This document shows positions 3,473 to 52,870 of a DNA stretch of 64,000 nucleotides, piece by piece. The translations under genes were made by a program, and so were the position numbers. The notes under the pieces were generated by a model. The model had not been told where the DNA came from and did no database searches. It saw only the letters and a list, made by a program, of their open reading frames with translations. Every line of letters begins with the position of its first letter. The stretch's first letter is position 1. Origin of the DNA: an uncultured Candidatus Saccharibacteria bacterium (GTDB lineage Bacteria; Patescibacteriota; Dojkabacteria; B142; OLB20); contig CAZLRZ010000001.1 of the NCBI GenBank assembly GCA_964562165.1, positions 1,349 through 65,348 on the forward strand, in the 5' to 3' direction.

Positions 3473-4171
3473 ATGTTTTTGCCCTCATTTGATCCAATTT
3501 ACATCCTTTTCGCTTTACCTGCTCTCGTTTTAGGATTTATCGCTACTATATATTTAAATTATATAACTAAGAAGTTCAATACAATTGAAACCAAACGCAA
3601 ATTAAATGGTTTAGAAATAGCCCAAGTAATTGGGAAAAGTGAAGGAATAAAATTCCAAATCAATTTATTTCCGACCCTTCTGAGTGAGTCTTACGATCCA
3701 ACGACTCAAACTTTAAACTTATCAGTTGAAAGCGCACAAAACAGAACTATCACAACTACTGCTATAACTGCTCATGAACTTGGACATATTATTCAACACC
3801 AAAAAGATAGTTTGTTATTTAAAATCAGAACAACTATAGTTCCTCTTGTTAGTTTTGGTACAAATATTGGATATTTTCTATTAATTATAGGTTTAGTTTT
3901 GGAATTCTCAAGCCTAGCATGGCTTGGTATAATTTTCTTTTCTTTAGCTACAATTTTTGCACTTATTACTGTTCCACTTGAATTTGACGCTAGCGAAAAG
4001 GCAATTAGGGTTTTAGAAAAGAACCAAATTATTTTTCCTTCAGAAAAATCGGGTGCAAAAAAGGTATTATTTGCAGCTGCATTAACCTATGTCGCAGGAC
4101 TATTTCAGTCAATCGGACAACTCCTTTACTTTATTTTCCGCATACAGGGGTTTTCAAGGAGTAAAGATTAA
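3473..4171 (+). CDS. Membrane zinc metallopeptidase, YugP/Zn_peptidase_2-like
   Basis: HExxH within TAHELGHIIQHQ. N-terminal TM plus C-terminal TM segments. 232 aa is typical for this family. Confidence 0.55.
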   Translation: MFLPSFDPIYILFALPALVLGFIATIYLNYITKKFNTIETKRKLNGLEIAQVIGKSEGIKFQINLFPTLLSESYDPTTQTLNLSVESAQNRTITTTAITAHELGHIIQHQKDSLLFKIRTTIVPLVSFGTNIGYFLLIIGLVLEFSSLAWLGIIFFSLATIFALITVPLEFDASEKAIRVLEKNQIIFPSEKSGAKKVLFAAALTYVAGLFQSIGQLLYFIFRIQGFSRSKD

Positions 4172-4485
4172 CCAATCAATAAGCCAGATTCTGTATCCTC
4201 CAATTAGTTTTGGATTGAGATAGTAATTTATCTATGCCTAGAAATATTCTAGTTGCTCTAAAGTAAGGGTTACCCAGCATTTCAACTTTACAGTTGAAAC
4301 CGGTGGTCTTTTACACCACCTTTTCACAATCTCCAAATCAATTAAGATTTGGGATTTTGCTTTCTGTGGCCCTGTTCTATAAGCTCACACCTATCCATGT
4401 TTCCATGGTACTTTTTGCTAAATTGAATTAGCTTAGAGTCCGGACTTTCCTCCCCAAATTACTCCGGGGCTACCATCTTGATTAG
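4172..4485 (-). ncRNA. rnpB: RNase P RNA (bacterial type A-like, reduced to ~314 nt)
   Basis: The minus strand reads CCCCGGAGUAAUUUGGGG (P3 hairpin) followed by AGGAAAGUCCGGACUC (the universal P4 5' strand). Further matches are ACAGAAAGCAAAAUCCC, GGUGGUGUAAAAGACCACC, CUGGGUAAC, UAGAUAAAUUACUAUC and the 3' ACAGAAUCUGGCUUAUUGAUU, which pairs with the 5' AAUCAAGAU (P1). The 327-nt interval holds no ORF. Confidence 0.85.
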
Positions 4486-4499
4486 TTGGGATTATTATA

Positions 4500-5088: not shown

Positions 5089-7104
5089 TTATGTTGTTAA
5101 ATTCGTTTTTATCACACTTTTTTGGGGCTGAACATCTTTTACTCCCGAAATCTCCTCCTTATCTTTACTTTCCATTGCCAAAATTTCTCTAAGATTAGTT
5201 GTTATTAAGTTATGTTCGTTTTCGCTTGCTAATACTTGTATTGCAACATGATTATAATCGGCAAAGAATAAGCCTTCACCAATACCCGCTGAAAGTAGGT
5301 AATCCTTTTCTCCATCTGATAAATAAAAGACTTTTTGAATTTGATCAACTGCAGCGGCATTTTGCTTTAACAATAATTGAATTGACGAGTTGTTAACTAC
5401 GGCCTTTCCGTAATCGGATGTTAAAAAGTCATTAACATCTTGTGTGATTGTTGTTACTCCTAAGCCGTATTTCCTTGATCTTTTTACAATAGAATAGACA
5501 AAACGAGCCGCATCAGGATATTGCATCATCCACCAAGCCTCATCAATAATTAGAATACGTTGTCGCTTATCCTTTTTAACTAAAGTCCAGATATAGTCTA
5601 ACATCACATACATTGCTACAGGTCTGAGTTCATCTGACAAATCTCTAATACTGAAGGCTGTAAAGGTATTATTTATTTTTACATTCGTAGCCTGGTCAAA
5701 AACACCTGCAGCGCTACCTTTAATAAATCTTTCGATTTTACTGGCTAGTAGATGGGCTTCGTCTTCGGCCATTGCATTAAGGATTTTATACAAATCTTCT
5801 AATAGTGGTGGAGGTCTTCGTTGAGTGGATGGATCAGGAGTAATCCCCTTTTCTTTATATGTCAAAATCAAGGCCCTATCAAGAATAGCAGTTTCTATTG
5901 GGCTTATTGTGCCCCCGACCATAATTCTAATTAGGCCTTGTAAAAATAGGATCTTAAATCTCAATTCATCTTCATCCTTTTCGAAAATACCTGATAGTTC
6001 AAATGGATTTAGTTTAGCCCCGGAATCTTGAGAGAATGTAATATATTCCCCGCCAATAGCATTTGTGAGTTTTTCATATTCTTTTTCAGGATCGATAATC
6101 ATAACGTGGGTTCCAAGCATCAAACTACGCATTGCTTCTAGTTTTACAAAATAACTTTTTCCGGCTCCAGAGGTTGCGAATATTACCATATTAGGGTTAG
6201 GCATTTGGAACCTATCAAAAATGATCAAACTTTTATTGTGCTTATTTATTCCATACATTATGCCGTCATCCATTGTAAGTTCCGAGGATACAAATGGGAA
6301 CGTTGTCGCTAATGAGGTTGTGTCCATATTCCTATTAAGATAGATTTTGTCATATCCCAAAGGAAGCGTGGAAATAAAGCCCTGCTCTTGTTGTAATGAT
6401 GCAACTTTAACAATTACACCTATTGCAGAAAGAGTTGATTCAACATTTCTTGAAATTTCTTCAAGTTCTTTAAGGTTAGTTGAACGAATAGTTACATATA
6501 GGGCAAAGTGGAAGAACTTCTGATTGCCCGAGGCGATCTGATCTTGGAGTTCTTCAGCTGAACGCAATGCGACTTTAACATTTGGGTCTGGTAGCTTGCC
6601 TGATTCTAGGTCAATATTAATAGTCGCTTGGAATTCAGTGATTTTTCTCTTTAACCTTTGTAATACAAGGCCCGAATCTGTTGGATAATAAAAAGTCGAA
6701 ATTGTAATAGGTTTCTCAAAGTTTATTAGAGGAGACAGCCAATTTGCGCCCACCCAGGTTGGGAATCCTGTCGCAAAGAAAGTTCTAAAATATTTACTAC
6801 CGATTTGCATATTGTTGAAATCGATTTCGATTGCAGGTGGAGCAATAATATCTTTAACATCAACGATACCTTCTGAGAAATTTTTAATTGCGTCTTCTTC
6901 TAGTTCACTATCCGTTTTGGTTTCAGTAACCTTTACTTGTGGCTTGCCCATAACTGACTCTAGAGCCTGTTTAATTCCGGTGCTTTGTTGTGGGGCAGCC
7001 TGCGTAGACTGAGCCCCCGCCACAGCAGTATTAGACTGAGGCCCAGCTTCTTGAGTTTGTGGTTTTGAAGGTTTTCTTCCTAATAGTGCGTCTAATATAT
7101 TCAT
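5089..7104 (-). CDS. VirB4/TrbE/CagE-family type IV secretion ATPase, C-terminal ATPase part
   Basis: Walker A FATSGAGKSYF and Walker B ILIIDEAWWMM (DEAW is characteristic of VirB4). 671 aa. Its start overlaps the upstream stop in a TAATG. Confidence 0.6.
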   Translation of the reverse strand: MNILDALLGRKPSKPQTQEAGPQSNTAVAGAQSTQAAPQQSTGIKQALESVMGKPQVKVTETKTDSELEEDAIKNFSEGIVDVKDIIAPPAIEIDFNNMQIGSKYFRTFFATGFPTWVGANWLSPLINFEKPITISTFYYPTDSGLVLQRLKRKITEFQATINIDLESGKLPDPNVKVALRSAEELQDQIASGNQKFFHFALYVTIRSTNLKELEEISRNVESTLSAIGVIVKVASLQQEQGFISTLPLGYDKIYLNRNMDTTSLATTFPFVSSELTMDDGIMYGINKHNKSLIIFDRFQMPNPNMVIFATSGAGKSYFVKLEAMRSLMLGTHVMIIDPEKEYEKLTNAIGGEYITFSQDSGAKLNPFELSGIFEKDEDELRFKILFLQGLIRIMVGGTISPIETAILDRALILTYKEKGITPDPSTQRRPPPLLEDLYKILNAMAEDEAHLLASKIERFIKGSAAGVFDQATNVKINNTFTAFSIRDLSDELRPVAMYVMLDYIWTLVKKDKRQRILIIDEAWWMMQYPDAARFVYSIVKRSRKYGLGVTTITQDVNDFLTSDYGKAVVNNSSIQLLLKQNAAAVDQIQKVFYLSDGEKDYLLSAGIGEGLFFADYNHVAIQVLASENEHNLITTNLREILAMESKDKEEISGVKDVQPQKSVIKTNLTT

Positions 7105-13111: not shown

Positions 13112-13289
13112 TTTTTGATAACTATTTTCAAAAATTATAGCAATAAACCATGATAACCTCTACTTTTATTTTCAATGAAATGATAAAATAATCATAAGCG
13201 ATTAAGGATTTGGTGTAAGCCTTAAAAATTTAGTGATTACAACCAAATATTCTCTTGAGAGTCTTAAAATTTCAAGCTTTTGAAGATTT

Positions 13290-13400
13290 TAAGGAATAAA
13301 GGTGGCACCACCCAAGATTTTTATAAATTTAAGGGCCCTTTTAGATTGTATTTTATAATCTAAAGCGGCTCTTTTTTTATTTATATTTTTTACCAAATAC
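13290..13400 (+). promoter_or_regulatory. Candidate aspS leader: T-box-like GGUGGCACC element plus a hairpin/U-run attenuator
   Basis: AAAGGTGGCACCACCC resembles the T-box core (AGGGUGGNACCGCG). UGGC would pair with the GCCA 3' end of tRNA-Asp or tRNA-Asn. Hairpin TTTAGATT...AATCTAAA, then GCGGCTCTTTTTTT, ends 20 nt before the ATG. Confidence 0.2.
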
Positions 13401-13403
13401 CAA

Positions 13404-15191
13404 ATGCAACGAATCTTATCAAATGAATTGAAAAACCAAATCGGCAACGAAGTTATGCTAGAAGGCTGGCTTCATAACCTAAGGACAATGGGCAAATTGG
13501 CCTTTCTAATTTTGCGTGATAGAACTGGTTTGAGCCAAATTGTTTTAGATTCTGTTGATGAAATCAAAAAGCTCGACAATCTATACACCGGTTCGGTTCT
13601 AAGAATAGTTGGGAACGCAGTTTTATCTGAGAAATCTCAATATGGTGTTGAAATCCAAAATTCAAAAATCGAAGTAATGCAACCTGTAAAATACCCTAGC
13701 CCAGTTGATATTTCAAAAAATGATTTGAATGTGGAGTTTGATACTTTGCTTGAAAATCGCGTAGTAACTTTAAGACACCCAAAGCAATCTGCGATTTTCA
13801 AAGTTGCAGGTATTGCCGAAAAAGTAATGCGTGACTTTTATAATAAAAATGAGTTCACACAAATTAATTCACCAAAAATGATTGCCTTCCCAACCGAAGG
13901 CGGTGCTGAGGTTTTTGAGGTCAACTACTTTGATAAAAAGGCGTATATGGCTCAAAGCCCTCAGTTTTATAAACAGATGATGGTCGGTGTTTTTGAAAAA
14001 GTATATGAAATCGGTAGAGCCTACCGTGCAGAAAAAAGTAATACCAGCAGGCATCTTTCGGAGATCCTAATGTTGGATATGGAAATGGGATTTATAAATT
14101 CCTTTGAGGACGTTCTAAATACTAGTGAATCCTTTATAAAATACGTTTGTGAAAATACTTGGAACGAAGCGGCCCCTTTACTTGAAGGCCTTGGAGCAAA
14201 AAAGCCAATAATTTCGGAAAAGCTTCCAAGAATTAGTGTAAAAGATTTACACGAATTAATGAAAAAAGAAACCGGCGAAGATCATACTAGCGAACTCGAC
14301 GTTGCTCCTTCTGAAGAAAAATTTATAAGCGAATATTCACAAAAGAACTGGAATAGCGAAGCGCTATTTATTGTTGACTTCCCTTGGTCCGATGCAAAAT
14401 TTTATCATCATCAAAGCGAAACCAACCCAGAAAATGCTGATCGAGCCGACTTAATTTTTAGAGGCGTTGAACTTGCTACAATTACAAGGCGTGAAGTCAA
14501 TTACGAAAAGCTAGTCTCACAAATCCAAGCAAAAGGAATGGATTCCAATCACCCAGGCCTAGCGCAATATCTTGAAGCCTTTAAATTTGGAATGCCCGAA
14601 GAAGGCGGCTTTGGTTTAGGTATTGCAAGATTCGTTCAAAAAATGATAGGCCTCGATAATGTAAAAGAAGCCGAACTATTTCCATCGGATCCTAAGCTAA
14701 TCGGTGGAGTTCGAATTGCTCCTAAGGTGTTTTTTGGCAAAGAGTTAAATTCTGAAATATTATCCCAATTAACAAAAGGTAAAATTACCTATGAAAAGGT
14801 AACTCATGAACCCGCAAAAACATCTGAGGAATCGGCCATTCAAAGAAAAACCAATCTTGATGAAGGTGTAAAAGCAATAATTCTTCGAGGTAAAAGAACA
14901 GGAAAAAACATTATGGTTTGTATTCCTGCTGATCAAAAACTAAATATGGACATATTATCCAGTTTTGAAAGTGAAAAGTTTGAGTTTGAAAACCCTCAAA
15001 TAATTAAAGATAAGTTCGGCTTGGAACTCGGATCAATTCCTCCATTTGGCAACTTGCTAGGAATGACTACGTATTTCTCAAATGATATAGAACAAAAAGC
15101 ATTATCAGCTTTCAATGATGGACTTACAACAGAGTCCATCAAGATGCAGCCAGCAGATTTAATTAAATTAATAAATCCAATATTAGTTTGA
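13404..15191 (+). CDS. aspS: Aspartyl-(or asparaginyl-)tRNA synthetase, class IIb archaeal/eukaryotic-type core, fused to a C-terminal YbaK/ProX-like deacylase domain
   Basis: Motif 2 AYRAEKSNTSRHLSEI and motif 3 GGFGLGIARFV. Core of ~440 aa. C-terminal ~150 aa (KAIILRGKRTGKNIMVCIPADQKLNMDILSS…LGSIPPFGNLLGMTTYFSNDI) aligns by eye to E. coli YbaK (K.LL…K.LAVAV.P….LDLKK….TGY.VGGISPLG). Confidence 0.8.
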   Translation: MQRILSNELKNQIGNEVMLEGWLHNLRTMGKLAFLILRDRTGLSQIVLDSVDEIKKLDNLYTGSVLRIVGNAVLSEKSQYGVEIQNSKIEVMQPVKYPSPVDISKNDLNVEFDTLLENRVVTLRHPKQSAIFKVAGIAEKVMRDFYNKNEFTQINSPKMIAFPTEGGAEVFEVNYFDKKAYMAQSPQFYKQMMVGVFEKVYEIGRAYRAEKSNTSRHLSEILMLDMEMGFINSFEDVLNTSESFIKYVCENTWNEAAPLLEGLGAKKPIISEKLPRISVKDLHELMKKETGEDHTSELDVAPSEEKFISEYSQKNWNSEALFIVDFPWSDAKFYHHQSETNPENADRADLIFRGVELATITRREVNYEKLVSQIQAKGMDSNHPGLAQYLEAFKFGMPEEGGFGLGIARFVQKMIGLDNVKEAELFPSDPKLIGGVRIAPKVFFGKELNSEILSQLTKGKITYEKVTHEPAKTSEESAIQRKTNLDEGVKAIILRGKRTGKNIMVCIPADQKLNMDILSSFESEKFEFENPQIIKDKFGLELGSIPPFGNLLGMTTYFSNDIEQKALSAFNDGLTTESIKMQPADLIKLINPILV

Positions 15192-51151: not shown

Positions 51152-52870
51152 TTGTATAATATTGTAATGACTTTACAATACAAAAAAATGCAGGTCCCTA
51201 TTGAGTTCTTTAAAGAGCTCGAAAACTTAAAAAAAGTTAATAATAAAAGAATTCAGATTTTGCTTCGGAAGTACCCAAGAGGTCACGAATTATTTAGCCG
51301 TGATCAATTGATTTCATCGTATAAAGAATATTGCGAAAAAGGTTTAATGAGCTTAGATAGTGAAATCCTAGACGTACTAAAATTAAAGCCTAGCAGAACA
51401 ATGTCAGGGGTTACAGTTATTACTGTCTTAACAAAACCCTACCCTTGCCCAGGAAAGTGCATTTTTTGCCCTAATGATATTAGAATGCCAAAAAGCTATA
51501 TAAGTTCAGAGCCCGGTGCTCAAAGAGCAGCCAGGAATGCATTTGATCCATATCTGCAAACATACAATCGTTTACTTGCCCTAAAAAATATTGGCCACAA
51601 TACTGAAAAAATCGAATTAATAGTTCTTGGAGGGACTTGGTCTTTTTACCCTATCGAATACAAAATTTGGTTTATAAAAAGATGCTTTGAGGCCATGAAC
51701 GACTTTGGAGTTATGGACGGCCGAATCGAAAAGGCTTCAATGCTAGTAGAAGACCCGATGAAAGATAAAAATGAAGTTGTCACCTACAATTCAAAAATCA
51801 ACTTTGAAAGACTTGTAAAAAACGAATCAGCAACTTGGGAAGAACTTTTTGAAGAACAACTCAAAAATCAAAATGCAAAATCGAGGAATGTTGGTTTAGT
51901 TTTGGAAACTAGGCCCGATTATATTTCACCCAAAGAGATCCAAGAATTAAGGCAATTTGGCGCAACAAAAATTCAAATAGGAGTCCAATCTTTAAACGAT
52001 ATTGTTTTAGAAAAAAACCAAAGAGGCACAACAAGAGCTCAAATTGTAAACGCTGTTAATTTAATCCGATCAGCCGGATTTAAAATCCATGCCCATTGGA
52101 TGCCAAATTTGTACGGATCATCGATTGAAATCGACAAACAGGATTATTTGGATTTATTTGAATTAGTTAAACCTGACGAGTTGAAAATTTATCCGACATC
52201 AATCATTAAAGGCACATTGCTTTATAAATATTTCAATGAAGGCAAATACAAACCATATAGTAATGAAGAATTAATTGAGCTTCTAAAGTTTTGTTTAAAG
52301 AACACACCAAAATACTGCAGACTCACACGTATTATCCGAGACATTCCATCAAATGAAATTGAAGCCGGAAACAAAACAACAAATCTTAGACAAATCATTG
52401 AAAATGAACTTATAAAAGAAGGAACACCTTGCCAATGCATCAGATGCCGAGAAGTGAAAAATACTAAGGTAATTTTTGAATCTTTAGGGAAAAACATCTT
52501 AGCGTACAAATCGCAAGTTGGGACTGACTATTTCATTACGCTTGAAACGGAAAACAAAATCGCAGGGTTTTTACGTCTTTTTTTGTCAGACAAAAATGAA
52601 TCTATCGAAAATGAACTTTATAAAGAGGTCAAAGATTCTGCAATAATTCGTGAAGTCCACGTCTATGGGCAGGTCGTAGGCATAGGCAAATCAATCGGCG
52701 AAAAGACTCAACATACAGGAGTTGGGAAAACTTTAGTCGCAGCAGCCGAAGAAATTGCCATTAATAATAAATTCAAAAAAATCAGCGTAATATCTGCAAT
52801 CGGAACAAGAGAATATTACAAAAAGCTTGGCTATACTTCACAAAAGATGTTCCAAACAAAAGAGCTTTAA
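51152..52870 (+). CDS. elp3: Elp3-like radical-SAM + GNAT enzyme (tRNA wobble uridine modification family)
   Basis: Radical-SAM Cys cluster YPCPGKCIFCPN. C-terminal GNAT with QHTGVGKTLVAAAEEIA and the Elp3-typical ending KKISVISAIGTREYYKKLGY. 572 aa. The true start may be an internal Met (MQVPIEF). Confidence 0.7.
   Translation: MYNIVMTLQYKKMQVPIEFFKELENLKKVNNKRIQILLRKYPRGHELFSRDQLISSYKEYCEKGLMSLDSEILDVLKLKPSRTMSGVTVITVLTKPYPCPGKCIFCPNDIRMPKSYISSEPGAQRAARNAFDPYLQTYNRLLALKNIGHNTEKIELIVLGGTWSFYPIEYKIWFIKRCFEAMNDFGVMDGRIEKASMLVEDPMKDKNEVVTYNSKINFERLVKNESATWEELFEEQLKNQNAKSRNVGLVLETRPDYISPKEIQELRQFGATKIQIGVQSLNDIVLEKNQRGTTRAQIVNAVNLIRSAGFKIHAHWMPNLYGSSIEIDKQDYLDLFELVKPDELKIYPTSIIKGTLLYKYFNEGKYKPYSNEELIELLKFCLKNTPKYCRLTRIIRDIPSNEIEAGNKTTNLRQIIENELIKEGTPCQCIRCREVKNTKVIFESLGKNILAYKSQVGTDYFITLETENKIAGFLRLFLSDKNESIENELYKEVKDSAIIREVHVYGQVVGIGKSIGEKTQHTGVGKTLVAAAEEIAINNKFKKISVISAIGTREYYKKLGYTSQKMFQTKEL

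Follow-up and report, generated by a model that had tools for sequence, protein, structure and literature searches.

Does any cell have reason to proofread the product of its aspartyl-tRNA synthetase (AspRS)? To our knowledge, AspRS is among the synthetases held to be accurate enough without proofreading. The question arises from one gene in a 64,000-nucleotide (nt) stretch of a Dojkabacteria genome (Patescibacteriota; assembly GCA_964562165.1, contig CAZLRZ010000001.1, forward-strand positions 1,349 to 65,348), which we call the window. This aspS gene encodes a 595-amino-acid (aa) protein in which an AspRS core is followed by a C-terminal domain of the INS superfamily of aminoacyl-tRNA deacylases, and a known editing fold thus appears on a synthetase without known editing.

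AspRS and an editing-type domain in one polypeptide

The fusion of an AspRS with an INS-type domain in a single 595-aa protein is confirmed. An earlier note, made by eye from the sequence, had proposed an Asp/Asn-type synthetase joined to a YbaK/ProX-like domain, and this proposal is borne out by AspRS profiles, by recurrence of the arrangement in related taxa, and by a significant match to Pfam PF04073 (tRNA_edit) that covers the whole profile (residues 468-589, profile positions 1-123 of 123, 60 bits against a gathering score of 25.5, E = 3e-16). The motifs quoted at the time, AYRAEKSNTSRHL at residues 206-218 and GLGIAR at 404-409, are both present. The extra C-terminal stretch of about 150 residues also stands, with a shift in its boundary: the core ends near residue 432, where the linker begins, and not near residue 440. 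In a full-length structure model (predicted template modeling score [pTM], 0.65), the linker has a predicted local distance difference test score (pLDDT) below 50 at residues 429-438.

Identical or near-identical fused proteins are encoded on three independent contigs (P0001-P0003), and the three-domain architecture is found in 20 more full-length homologs with 41 to 85% identity. Because many independent contigs and 80 GTDB species representatives (see below) carry the same uninterrupted, single open reading frame (ORF), an assembly chimera or read-through artifact is ruled out.

Identity and type of the synthetase core

By profile and motif content, the core classifies as an archaeal-type class IIb AspRS. 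Among NCBI curated models, the protein passes NF003483, aspartate--tRNA(Asn) ligase, with 457 bits (cutoff, 353), a score that exceeds those with asparaginyl-tRNA synthetase (AsnRS), lysyl-tRNA synthetase (LysRS), and bacterial AspRS models. It lies slightly under the cutoff of TIGR00458 (344 versus 368 bits), far under the cutoffs of the bacterial AspRS models, and under those of both asnS models (245 versus 414 bits and 240 versus 343 bits). The choice between AspRS and AsnRS, which the earlier note had left unresolved, is settled by these profiles in favor of AspRS, and AsnRS identity is ruled out. The class IIb motifs are intact (QSPQFYKQ; motif 2, YRAEKSNTSRH; motif 3, GGFGLGIAR), with R208, E210, R216, H217, and R409 invariant in 21 homologs.

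The core also looks non-discriminating, that is, able to charge both tRNAAsp and tRNAAsn, as judged from the curated model and from its closest solved relative, Thermus thermophilus AspRS2 (1N9W/3KFU; 319 bits, compared with 261 bits for the discriminating Thermococcus kodakarensis enzyme). Residue H24 aligns with W26 of the T. kodakarensis AspRS (3NEL/1B8A) and with a histidine of the non-discriminating Thermus AspRS2, and Q79 aligns with K85 of T. kodakarensis, which is a proline in Thermus AspRS2; W26 and K85 (T. kodakarensis numbering) mark the positions that, in work by Feng and colleagues in 2003, reportedly control discrimination. In our motif survey, histidine at the W26-equivalent position is common to fused and unfused relatives.

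The core further carries T-I-T-R-R at residues 359-363 in place of S-G-G-Q-R. This change belongs to a large Patescibacteria AspRS family (P0010-P0045 and others, window core included) in which the class IIb active-site S-G-G-Q-R is replaced by T-[ILV]-T-[RQ]-R, or in some members by T-V-P-[LM]-R, with the flanking Glu and Arg retained. We considered the replacement as a cause of a need for editing and rejected it: it is not fusion specific, since the whole unfused family has it and the fusions of a separate clade (clade I, below) keep SGGQR.

Family, fold, and conservation of the appended domain

The appended domain confidently takes the INS-superfamily fold in structure prediction. A domain-only AlphaFold2 model has a pLDDT of 92.5 and a pTM of 0.86, and all 37 Foldseek matches in the PDB at E ≤ 1e-3 are YbaK/ProX/INS-fold entries (lpg1207/3OP6, APE2540, ProX/YbaK, and the INS domain of prolyl-tRNA synthetase [ProRS]) with template modeling (TM) scores of 0.6 to 0.8; the 37 include computational designs based on 2CX5 (3RI0 and 3RIJ) and two larger proteins in which the fold is one part (SadB, 9QZK; 3MEM). 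Within the superfamily, a PDB search with a profile of 21 fused domains ranked the uncharacterized Legionella protein lpg1207 first (3OP6, E = 1.6e-18), followed by APE2540 (1WDV, E = 9e-10), ProXp-x (2CX5, named per PMC11295145; E = 2e-9), YbaK (2DXA and 1DBU, E = 5e-8 and 3e-7), Atu3699 (1VKI, E = 2e-6), and ProXp-ala (5VXB, E = 0.045). The earlier assignment to YbaK therefore holds at the level of the PF04073 superfamily and fails for YbaK proper: the domain scores 35 bits against a cutoff of 153 with TIGR00011 (YbaK_EbsC), and YbaK orthology is ruled out by this score and by the rank of 2DXA and 1DBU below 3OP6, 1WDV, and 2CX5. We place the domain, provisionally and on sequence grounds, in an uncharacterized INS subfamily whose nearest solved member is lpg1207; open-access papers assign 3OP6 to none of the ProXp subfamilies.

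The residues expected of an active deacylase are retained. In agreement with the blocks picked out by eye in the earlier note, K490 aligns with the lysine of YbaK YKTLL, and GSIPPFG aligns with GGISPLG; K490 is the equivalent of K46 of Haemophilus influenzae YbaK, which is critical by mutagenesis (PMC3532385). In a comparison of fused members (108 of archaeal type and 14 of bacterial type) with 109 free-standing ones, we found 12 positions conserved in all three groups (H468, T473, K490, G543, P546, P547, F548, G549, F570, N571, G573, and D585), with K490, G543, P546, P547, F548, and G549 invariant or nearly so throughout and K490, G543, and P547 100% conserved among fused sequences. Three further residues, S474, R481, and S578, are near-invariant in the family and differ in 3OP6 and Escherichia coli YbaK, which makes them candidate specificity residues.

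The domain evolves under the same constraint as the essential core, because its ratio of nonsynonymous to synonymous changes per site (pN/pS) is 0.13, compared with 0.12 for the core (both against the closest genome, L002). Synonymous sites are saturated in this comparison, and for that reason substitution-rate ratios (dN/dS) were dropped and pN/pS is given.

Distribution and fusion partners

A HMMER search with the domain over 1.84 billion cluster representatives returned 5135 relatives at E ≤ 1e-3 and 85 at E ≤ 1e-30, most of them free-standing and about 155 aa long. Among the best 150 cluster representatives, at least 22 are AspRS fusions or their C-terminal fragments, and no synthetase partner other than AspRS occurs. 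Three backbones carry the domain: archaeal-type AspRS, bacterial-type AspRS with the GAD insertion (P0158, P0145, P0169, and P0215), and bacterial-type AspRS without a GAD match (P0126 and P0141); every bacterial-type fusion tested scores above the curated bacterial aspS cutoff. The editing-domain family also has partners outside the synthetases, namely, an N-terminal tRNA_edit domain followed by a Peptidase_S11 DD-carboxypeptidase, GmrSD_N followed by tRNA_edit, and two or three tRNA_edit domains in tandem (P0217, 486 aa; P0259, 505 aa; P0191, 286 aa; P0140, 448 aa; P0146, 491 aa; P0204, 303 aa).

In a survey of GTDB with one genome per species, relatives of the domain are encoded in 179 stretches. 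We examined the best 80, and in each of them the domain belongs to a single ORF of about 600 aa that includes an archaeal-type AspRS core (80/80). These 80 come from Dojkabacteria/WS6 and other Patescibacteria, Legionellaceae, Bdellovibrionota, Verrucomicrobiota, and many environmental Chlamydiae (Parachlamydiaceae, Simkaniaceae, and Rhabdochlamydiaceae). EF-Tu places the window's organism itself among Dojkabacteria, the label carried by every named match at 79 to 83% identity. The fusion is widespread over several phyla, and far from rare; it arose or was transferred several times.

The earlier note knew of no YbaK domain fused to an Asp/Asn synthetase, and open-access full text likewise yielded no description of an AspRS-INS/YbaK fusion; subscription-only papers (e.g., Kuzmishin Nagy et al., 2020) lay outside that search. 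Public records name such proteins "aspartate--tRNA(Asn) ligase" or even "asparagine--tRNA ligase." The sequences are public, and the fusion as a feature appears to be undescribed. Within the INS superfamily, ProXp-7, -8, and -9 are uncharacterized to date (PMC11295145).

Gain and loss of the domain in the window's lineage

How the window's gene came by its extra domain can be read from its relatives. In a tree of the cores (neighbor joining without support values, hence indicative only), a deep clade I consists entirely of fused proteins, and the window's small clade (P0001-P0009, L002) is nested in the large unfused Patescibacteria AspRS family. Between the window and clade I, the domains are 45 to 53% identical and the cores 38 to 42%; inside the window's clade the order is reversed, with cores (65 to 87%) above domains (53 to 81%). 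The junction falls between ELFP and SD, where the linker takes the place of the canonical C terminus RDVQRITP of unfused orthologues: unfused kin end in ARFVQKMIGLDNAKEAELFPRDVQRITP, the window protein reads ARFVQKMIGLDNVKEAELFP before the junction and SDPKLIGGVRIAPKVFFGKEL after it, and clade I proteins read ERFTMMLLGLDNIRESTLFP and SDPKRIAGVSIAGKLFFGDEL, respectively. The window core shares T-I-T-R-R with the whole unfused family, whereas clade I and the solved AspRSs have S-G-G-Q-R. Because the identities of core and domain are incongruent, the junction is readable, and the core bears the T-I-T-R-R of the unfused family, we read the gene most simply as a resident aspS that received its linker and domain by lateral transfer from a clade-I-type gene.

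The reverse step has also occurred. An orthologue at locus L082 (core 65% identical) lies in the same synteny, with a 1050-aa protein and a PEGA protein upstream and sufCBDS and a GNAT gene downstream, and is without the domain. Two other proteins (P0010 and P0011; loci L086/L087, 5001-6347) retain the fused-type linker ELFPSDTKMIGA[VI]R, meet a stop codon 13 to 17 residues farther on, and have sufC directly downstream; they are secondary losses of the domain. The domain is beneficial enough for repeated acquisition yet non-essential, since it has been acquired repeatedly, is absent from L082, and was lost in P0010 and P0011. A split-gene origin is ruled out, as no editing ORF lies downstream of the unfused syntenic orthologues, where sufC is the next gene. 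This presence/absence series among syntenic orthologues, including the natural domain deletions P0010 and P0011, provides ready-made controls.

A reduced T-box-type leader upstream of aspS

Is the fused gene the cell's regular aspS or an accessory copy? The region upstream of it bears on this point. Rfam model RF00230 (T-box) matches positions 13192-13343 with 18.6 bits, a weak match that does not reach the gathering score of 93 (E of about 0.03 on 250 to 300 nt; the upstream region is 292 nt). Within 1.15 Mb of window and locus sequence, every copy of the extended core motif [AG]GGUGG.ACC[AG][CU] precedes aspS; the copies lie in the window, in its duplicate contig L001, and at nine Patescibacteria loci, six fused and three unfused (L002, L003, L004, L005, L025, L045, L082, L084, and L086). 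All of these leaders have the core AGGUGG[CU]ACC, and no chlamydial, Legionella, or other locus examined has the extended motif.

In 10 of 10 leaders, a UGGN bulge lies in a bipartite helix, and the 3′ strand of this helix overlaps a long hairpin with a U-run behind it; in the window, the 5′ strand of the terminator hairpin overlaps the 3′ strand of the antiterminator. The leader has the layout of a classical antiterminator/terminator switch. The 5′ hairpin shows compensatory changes at 6/6 pairs, and its loop resembles the Stem I distal-loop motif. For the antiterminator, a hand-curated excerpt with strands chosen by eye has double changes at 6/8 pairs and 93% of cells paired, and its covariation score was reached by 0/500 shuffles, with the signal collapsing when partners were slid. 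When RNAalifold was given an uncurated MAFFT alignment of the antiterminator, it recovered only the GGUGGCACC palindrome, the loops being misaligned. We call the leader reduced because 86 Stem I positions shrink to 12 in the cmscan alignment; no canonical specifier loop or distal platform is recognizable in it.

All 10 leaders carry GU-GA[CU], in which GAC and GAU vary at the third position only, followed by a conserved A-rich block, A.AA[CU]..AA.A, with an AAY triplet. The best candidate for the specifier is Asp (GAY); given the AAY triplet, another register is conceivable. The expected partner of a UGG-C bulge is a G73 discriminator, consistent with both tRNAAsp and tRNAAsn. Since fused and unfused orthologues share the leader, it would mark the fused gene as a regular, tRNA-sensing aspS and not an accessory paralogue, and the reduced form would extend the T-box riboswitch class to Patescibacteria.

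What might the domain do?

Because the domain has been joined repeatedly and independently to one enzyme, we favor a function tied to AspRS. Our leading proposal is tethered post-transfer proofreading, in which the C-terminal deacylase of a T-box-regulated housekeeping aspS proofreads the products of its own AspRS core; we give it about an even chance of being correct. The core would charge tRNAAsp, and probably tRNAAsn, with aspartate, and the flexible linker would keep the deacylase within reach while the anticodon-binding domain holds the tRNA, or upon immediate rebinding. The aminoacylated CCA end would then enter the deacylase pocket, where a wrong ester would be hydrolyzed and Asp-tRNAAsp spared. 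The tether would provide the tRNA specificity that INS-family domains often lack. What the analysis shows is the architecture, the fold, the retained catalytic residues, purifying selection, and a recurrent, exclusive association with AspRS; that the domain hydrolyzes esters, and does so on what its own synthetase makes, is inferred, as is the substrate. Our leading guess for the substrate is tRNAAsp or tRNAAsn wrongly carrying a non-cognate or non-protein amino acid. Related systems offer precedents: the specificity of YbaK requires a ProRS-YbaK-tRNA complex (PMC7373986; PMC3367201), and deacylation by ProXp-ala is improved when it is fused to ProRS (PMC11286415).

Several observations weigh against tethered proofreading. 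We know of no need for editing on the part of AspRS and of no documented misacylation product that would require it. The domain is dispensable in close relatives, as seen in the syntenic L082 gene and in P0010 and P0011, and the placement of the domain relative to the core is not confidently predicted in the full-length model (pTM, 0.65; linker disordered). Activity of the domain in this subfamily is itself a prediction, and the near-invariant R481 could instead be a sign of an acidic substrate, for example Asp itself. One report describes use of Glu by AspRS and found no mischarged tRNA (PMC6523644). Class II synthetases, moreover, release their product fast, and editing may take place mainly after rebinding and not strictly in cis (PMC11286415).

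In an alternative that we consider unlikely, the domain would selectively hydrolyze the Asp-tRNAAsn made by the non-discriminating core, and the holoenzyme would act as a discriminating one in genomes that have AsnRS and do not rely on GatCAB for Asn-tRNAAsn. The features of the core fit this idea (NF003483, nearest relative Thermus AspRS2, His at the W26 position, and no Lys at the K85 position), R481, a candidate pocket residue, could bind a carboxylate side chain together with S474, N571, and S578, all of which differ in YbaK and 3OP6, and the patchy gain and loss of the domain could follow the presence or absence of GatCAB and AsnRS. Against it, some orthologues at the same EF-Tu distance have the same non-discriminating-like anticodon-binding residues and identical synteny yet are unfused, and INS-family domains usually choose the aminoacyl moiety and not the identity of the tRNA. 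Chlamydiae, where the fusion is commonest, are known to depend on GatCAB and to lack AsnRS, and hydrolysis of Asp-tRNAAsn would for that reason be counterproductive there.

A broader version of the acidic-substrate idea, which we regard as improbable and offer tentatively, is that this is the first natural AspRS with a dedicated editing domain and that the 3OP6-like INS subfamily as a whole (thousands of free-standing members plus the AspRS-fused ones, lpg1207 included) comprises AspRS-associated deacylases of acidic aminoacyl-tRNA, most provocatively Asp-tRNAAsn. If true, such enzymes would tell the two tRNAs apart by hydrolyzing the ester on the wrong one and not by recognizing the anticodon, a new solution to Asp/Asn decoding in genome-reduced symbionts such as Patescibacteria and environmental Chlamydiae.

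The domain could instead be a general trans-editing factor that is merely coexpressed with AspRS and clears the errors of other synthetases (errors of ProRS, or Ser/Thr- or 2-aminobutyrate [Abu]-tRNAs, like ProXp-ST/ProXp-x), with fusion securing expression and stoichiometry. We think this distinctly unlikely. In its favor, every characterized INS-superfamily member corrects mistakes made by ProRS or by several other synthetases (PMC11295145), most proteins of the present subfamily are free-standing at about 155 aa, one of them in Patescibacteria is unlinked to aspS, and relatives manage without the domain. A neutral coexpression fusion should, however, give varied partners, whereas AspRS is the sole synthetase partner seen, on at least three AspRS backbones and with at least one lateral graft.

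Very improbable, finally, is a non-hydrolytic role, in which the domain would bind the aminoacylated or free CCA end for hand-off of Asp-tRNAAsn to GatCAB, as a built-in transamidosome element, or raise tRNA affinity: the nearest solved core, Thermus AspRS2, operates within a transamidosome (3KFU), AspRS-GatC fusions (NF009460) are a loose precedent for C-terminal add-ons that serve the indirect pathway, and the positions at which conservation is confined to archaeal-type fusions hold largely basic residues (K497 and K512), but the full active-deacylase signature is invariant (K490 and the GxxPP loop) and gatCAB is linked to aspS at none of about 90 loci.

INS-superfamily deacylases have been described as part of ProRS or as single-domain proteins (PMC11295145). 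A fusion that is conserved, under selection, and repeatedly re-invented would mean that AspRS error matters in some cells or that Asp-tRNAAsn is policed hydrolytically, and it bears on translation fidelity in genome-reduced, host-dependent bacteria (candidate phyla radiation [CPR], Chlamydiae, and Legionellaceae). In either case, the partner enzyme and the tRNA give an uncharacterized INS subfamily a foothold for functional tests, with the aminoacyl group as the missing piece.

Gene neighborhood and other features of the window

Directly downstream of the fused gene lie sufC, sufB, sufD, and sufS, and upstream, on the opposite strand, a PEGA-like protein and a 1054-aa protein are encoded. Neither gatA/gatB nor asnS nor proS is found among the large ORFs of the 64-kb window, no tRNA genes are found in it, and asnS, like gatCAB, is found near none of the approximately 90 loci. 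The free-standing homolog of the domain in Patescibacteria does not adjoin aspS. In environmental Chlamydiae (L008, 4581-6689, and 16 more loci), pnp (polynucleotide phosphorylase) immediately precedes the fused aspS in the same orientation, and tadA, ftsH, and tilS are close by. This context marks a housekeeping translation gene and is uninformative on the substrate.

Other features of the window are given with those of the aspS locus in Table 1. The RNase P RNA is the sole Rfam family in the window at its gathering score. Genes related to the VirB4-like gene occur in L082 and L086, and PrgI-like and TraC-like genes adjoin it in syntenic loci; this arrangement points to conservation of a type IV secretion or pilus-like cluster close to aspS.

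Table 1. Features of the aspS locus and other annotated features of the window (window coordinates; residues are those of the 595-aa protein)
Feature	Position	Strand	Basis or remark
Bacterial RNase P RNA, class A	4165-4488	-	RF00010, 149 bits (gathering score, 100)
VirB4-like conjugal-transfer ATPase, CD1110 family	5089-7104	-	396 bits (cutoff, 325)
Reduced T-box-type leader (predicted)	13196-13343	+	Weak Rfam match, motif conservation, covariation
AAGCGA	13196-13201	+	
Short Stem I-like hairpin UUAAGG/CCUUAA with AGUG.AAG-type loop	13202-13225	+	
Candidate specifier GAU	13235-13237	+	
Stem III-like hairpin	13263-13293	+	
T-box core AGGUGGCACCACCC	13300-13313	+	
Antiterminator closing	13333-13340	+	
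Terminator-like hairpin GGGCCCUUUUAGAUU / AAUCUAAAGCGGCUC, then U7	13333-13378	+	Read from sequence
Fused gene, AspRS plus C-terminal INS/ProX-like deacylase domain	13404-15191	+	ATG start, 595 aa, stop codon within coordinates
OB-fold anticodon-binding domain, residues 17-91	13452-13676	+	Pfam PF01336 and PDB alignments
Class IIb catalytic core, residues 113-429	13740-14690	+	PF00152 (E = 5e-68), NF003483, 1N9W, motif survey
Region of T-I-T-R-R, residues 356-363	14469-14492	+	
Graft junction and linker, residues 428-445, SDPKLIGGVRIAPKVFFG	14685-14738	+	Junction alignment
INS-superfamily (YbaK/ProX-like) aminoacyl-tRNA deacylase domain (predicted), residues 446-595 (Pfam, 468-589)	14739-15188	+	PF04073, PDB profile search, AlphaFold2/Foldseek, conservation
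K490 codon	14871-14873	+	
G543-x-x-P546-P547 loop	15030-15044	+	
Elp3-type radical-SAM/GNAT tRNA U34 modification enzyme	51152-52870	+	TIGR01211, 491 bits (cutoff, 350)

Comparison with known systems

The closest counterparts in architecture are bacterial ProRS with its INS domain and the protozoan ProXp-ala-ProRS fusions, which, like the window protein, combine a class II synthetase and an INS-superfamily deacylase in one polypeptide. The catalytic Lys and a GXXXP-type loop are conserved in them as in the window domain, and fusion is thought to enhance deacylation (PMC11286415). They differ in their host, which is class IIa whereas AspRS is class IIb, and in the placement of the domain, which lies between motifs 2 and 3 or at the N terminus in the ProRS fusions and at the extreme C terminus, behind a flexible linker, in the window protein; the window domain also comes from a different, uncharacterized subfamily.

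Taken by itself, the domain is closest in both sequence profile and fold to lpg1207 (3OP6; Foldseek E = 2e-12, TM score of 0.73 to 0.79, 28% identity), with which it shares the PPFGN loop. Unlike the window protein, lpg1207 is free-standing, and it has Ala, Ala, and Leu at the positions of S474, R481, and S578. YbaK, ProXp-x (an Abu-tRNA deacylase; 2CX5), and ProXp-ala have the same fold and catalytic lysine, but they are single-domain proteins (PMC11295145) with 12 to 21% identity to the window domain. YbaK, a Cys-tRNAPro deacylase, gains its specificity through a complex with a synthetase (PMC7373986), for which the covalent tether proposed here would be a functional analogue.

On the side of the synthetase, Thermus AspRS2 (1N9W/3KFU) shares the His at the W26-equivalent position and ends at an FPRD motif, where the window's graft begins; it differs in having no C-terminal domain, in working with GatCAB in the transamidosome, and in carrying S-G-G-Q-R where the window protein has T-I-T-R-R. 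The AspRS-GatC fusion (NF009460) likewise extends an AspRS at its C terminus with a part that works on the acceptor end of the tRNA being charged, but there the addition is an amidotransferase subunit, not a hydrolase, on a bacterial-type core, and the window protein reaches 72 bits against that model's cutoff of 1379.

The leader, for its part, resembles T-box riboswitches (RF00230), including variants with a shortened Stem I, in its UGGN bulge, in the competition of antiterminator and terminator, in the synthetase gene downstream, and in a codon-like GAY for the amino acid of that enzyme. It departs from them in its Rfam score (18.6 versus 93 bits), in having no canonical specifier loop or distal platform, and in its host, a member of the Patescibacteria.

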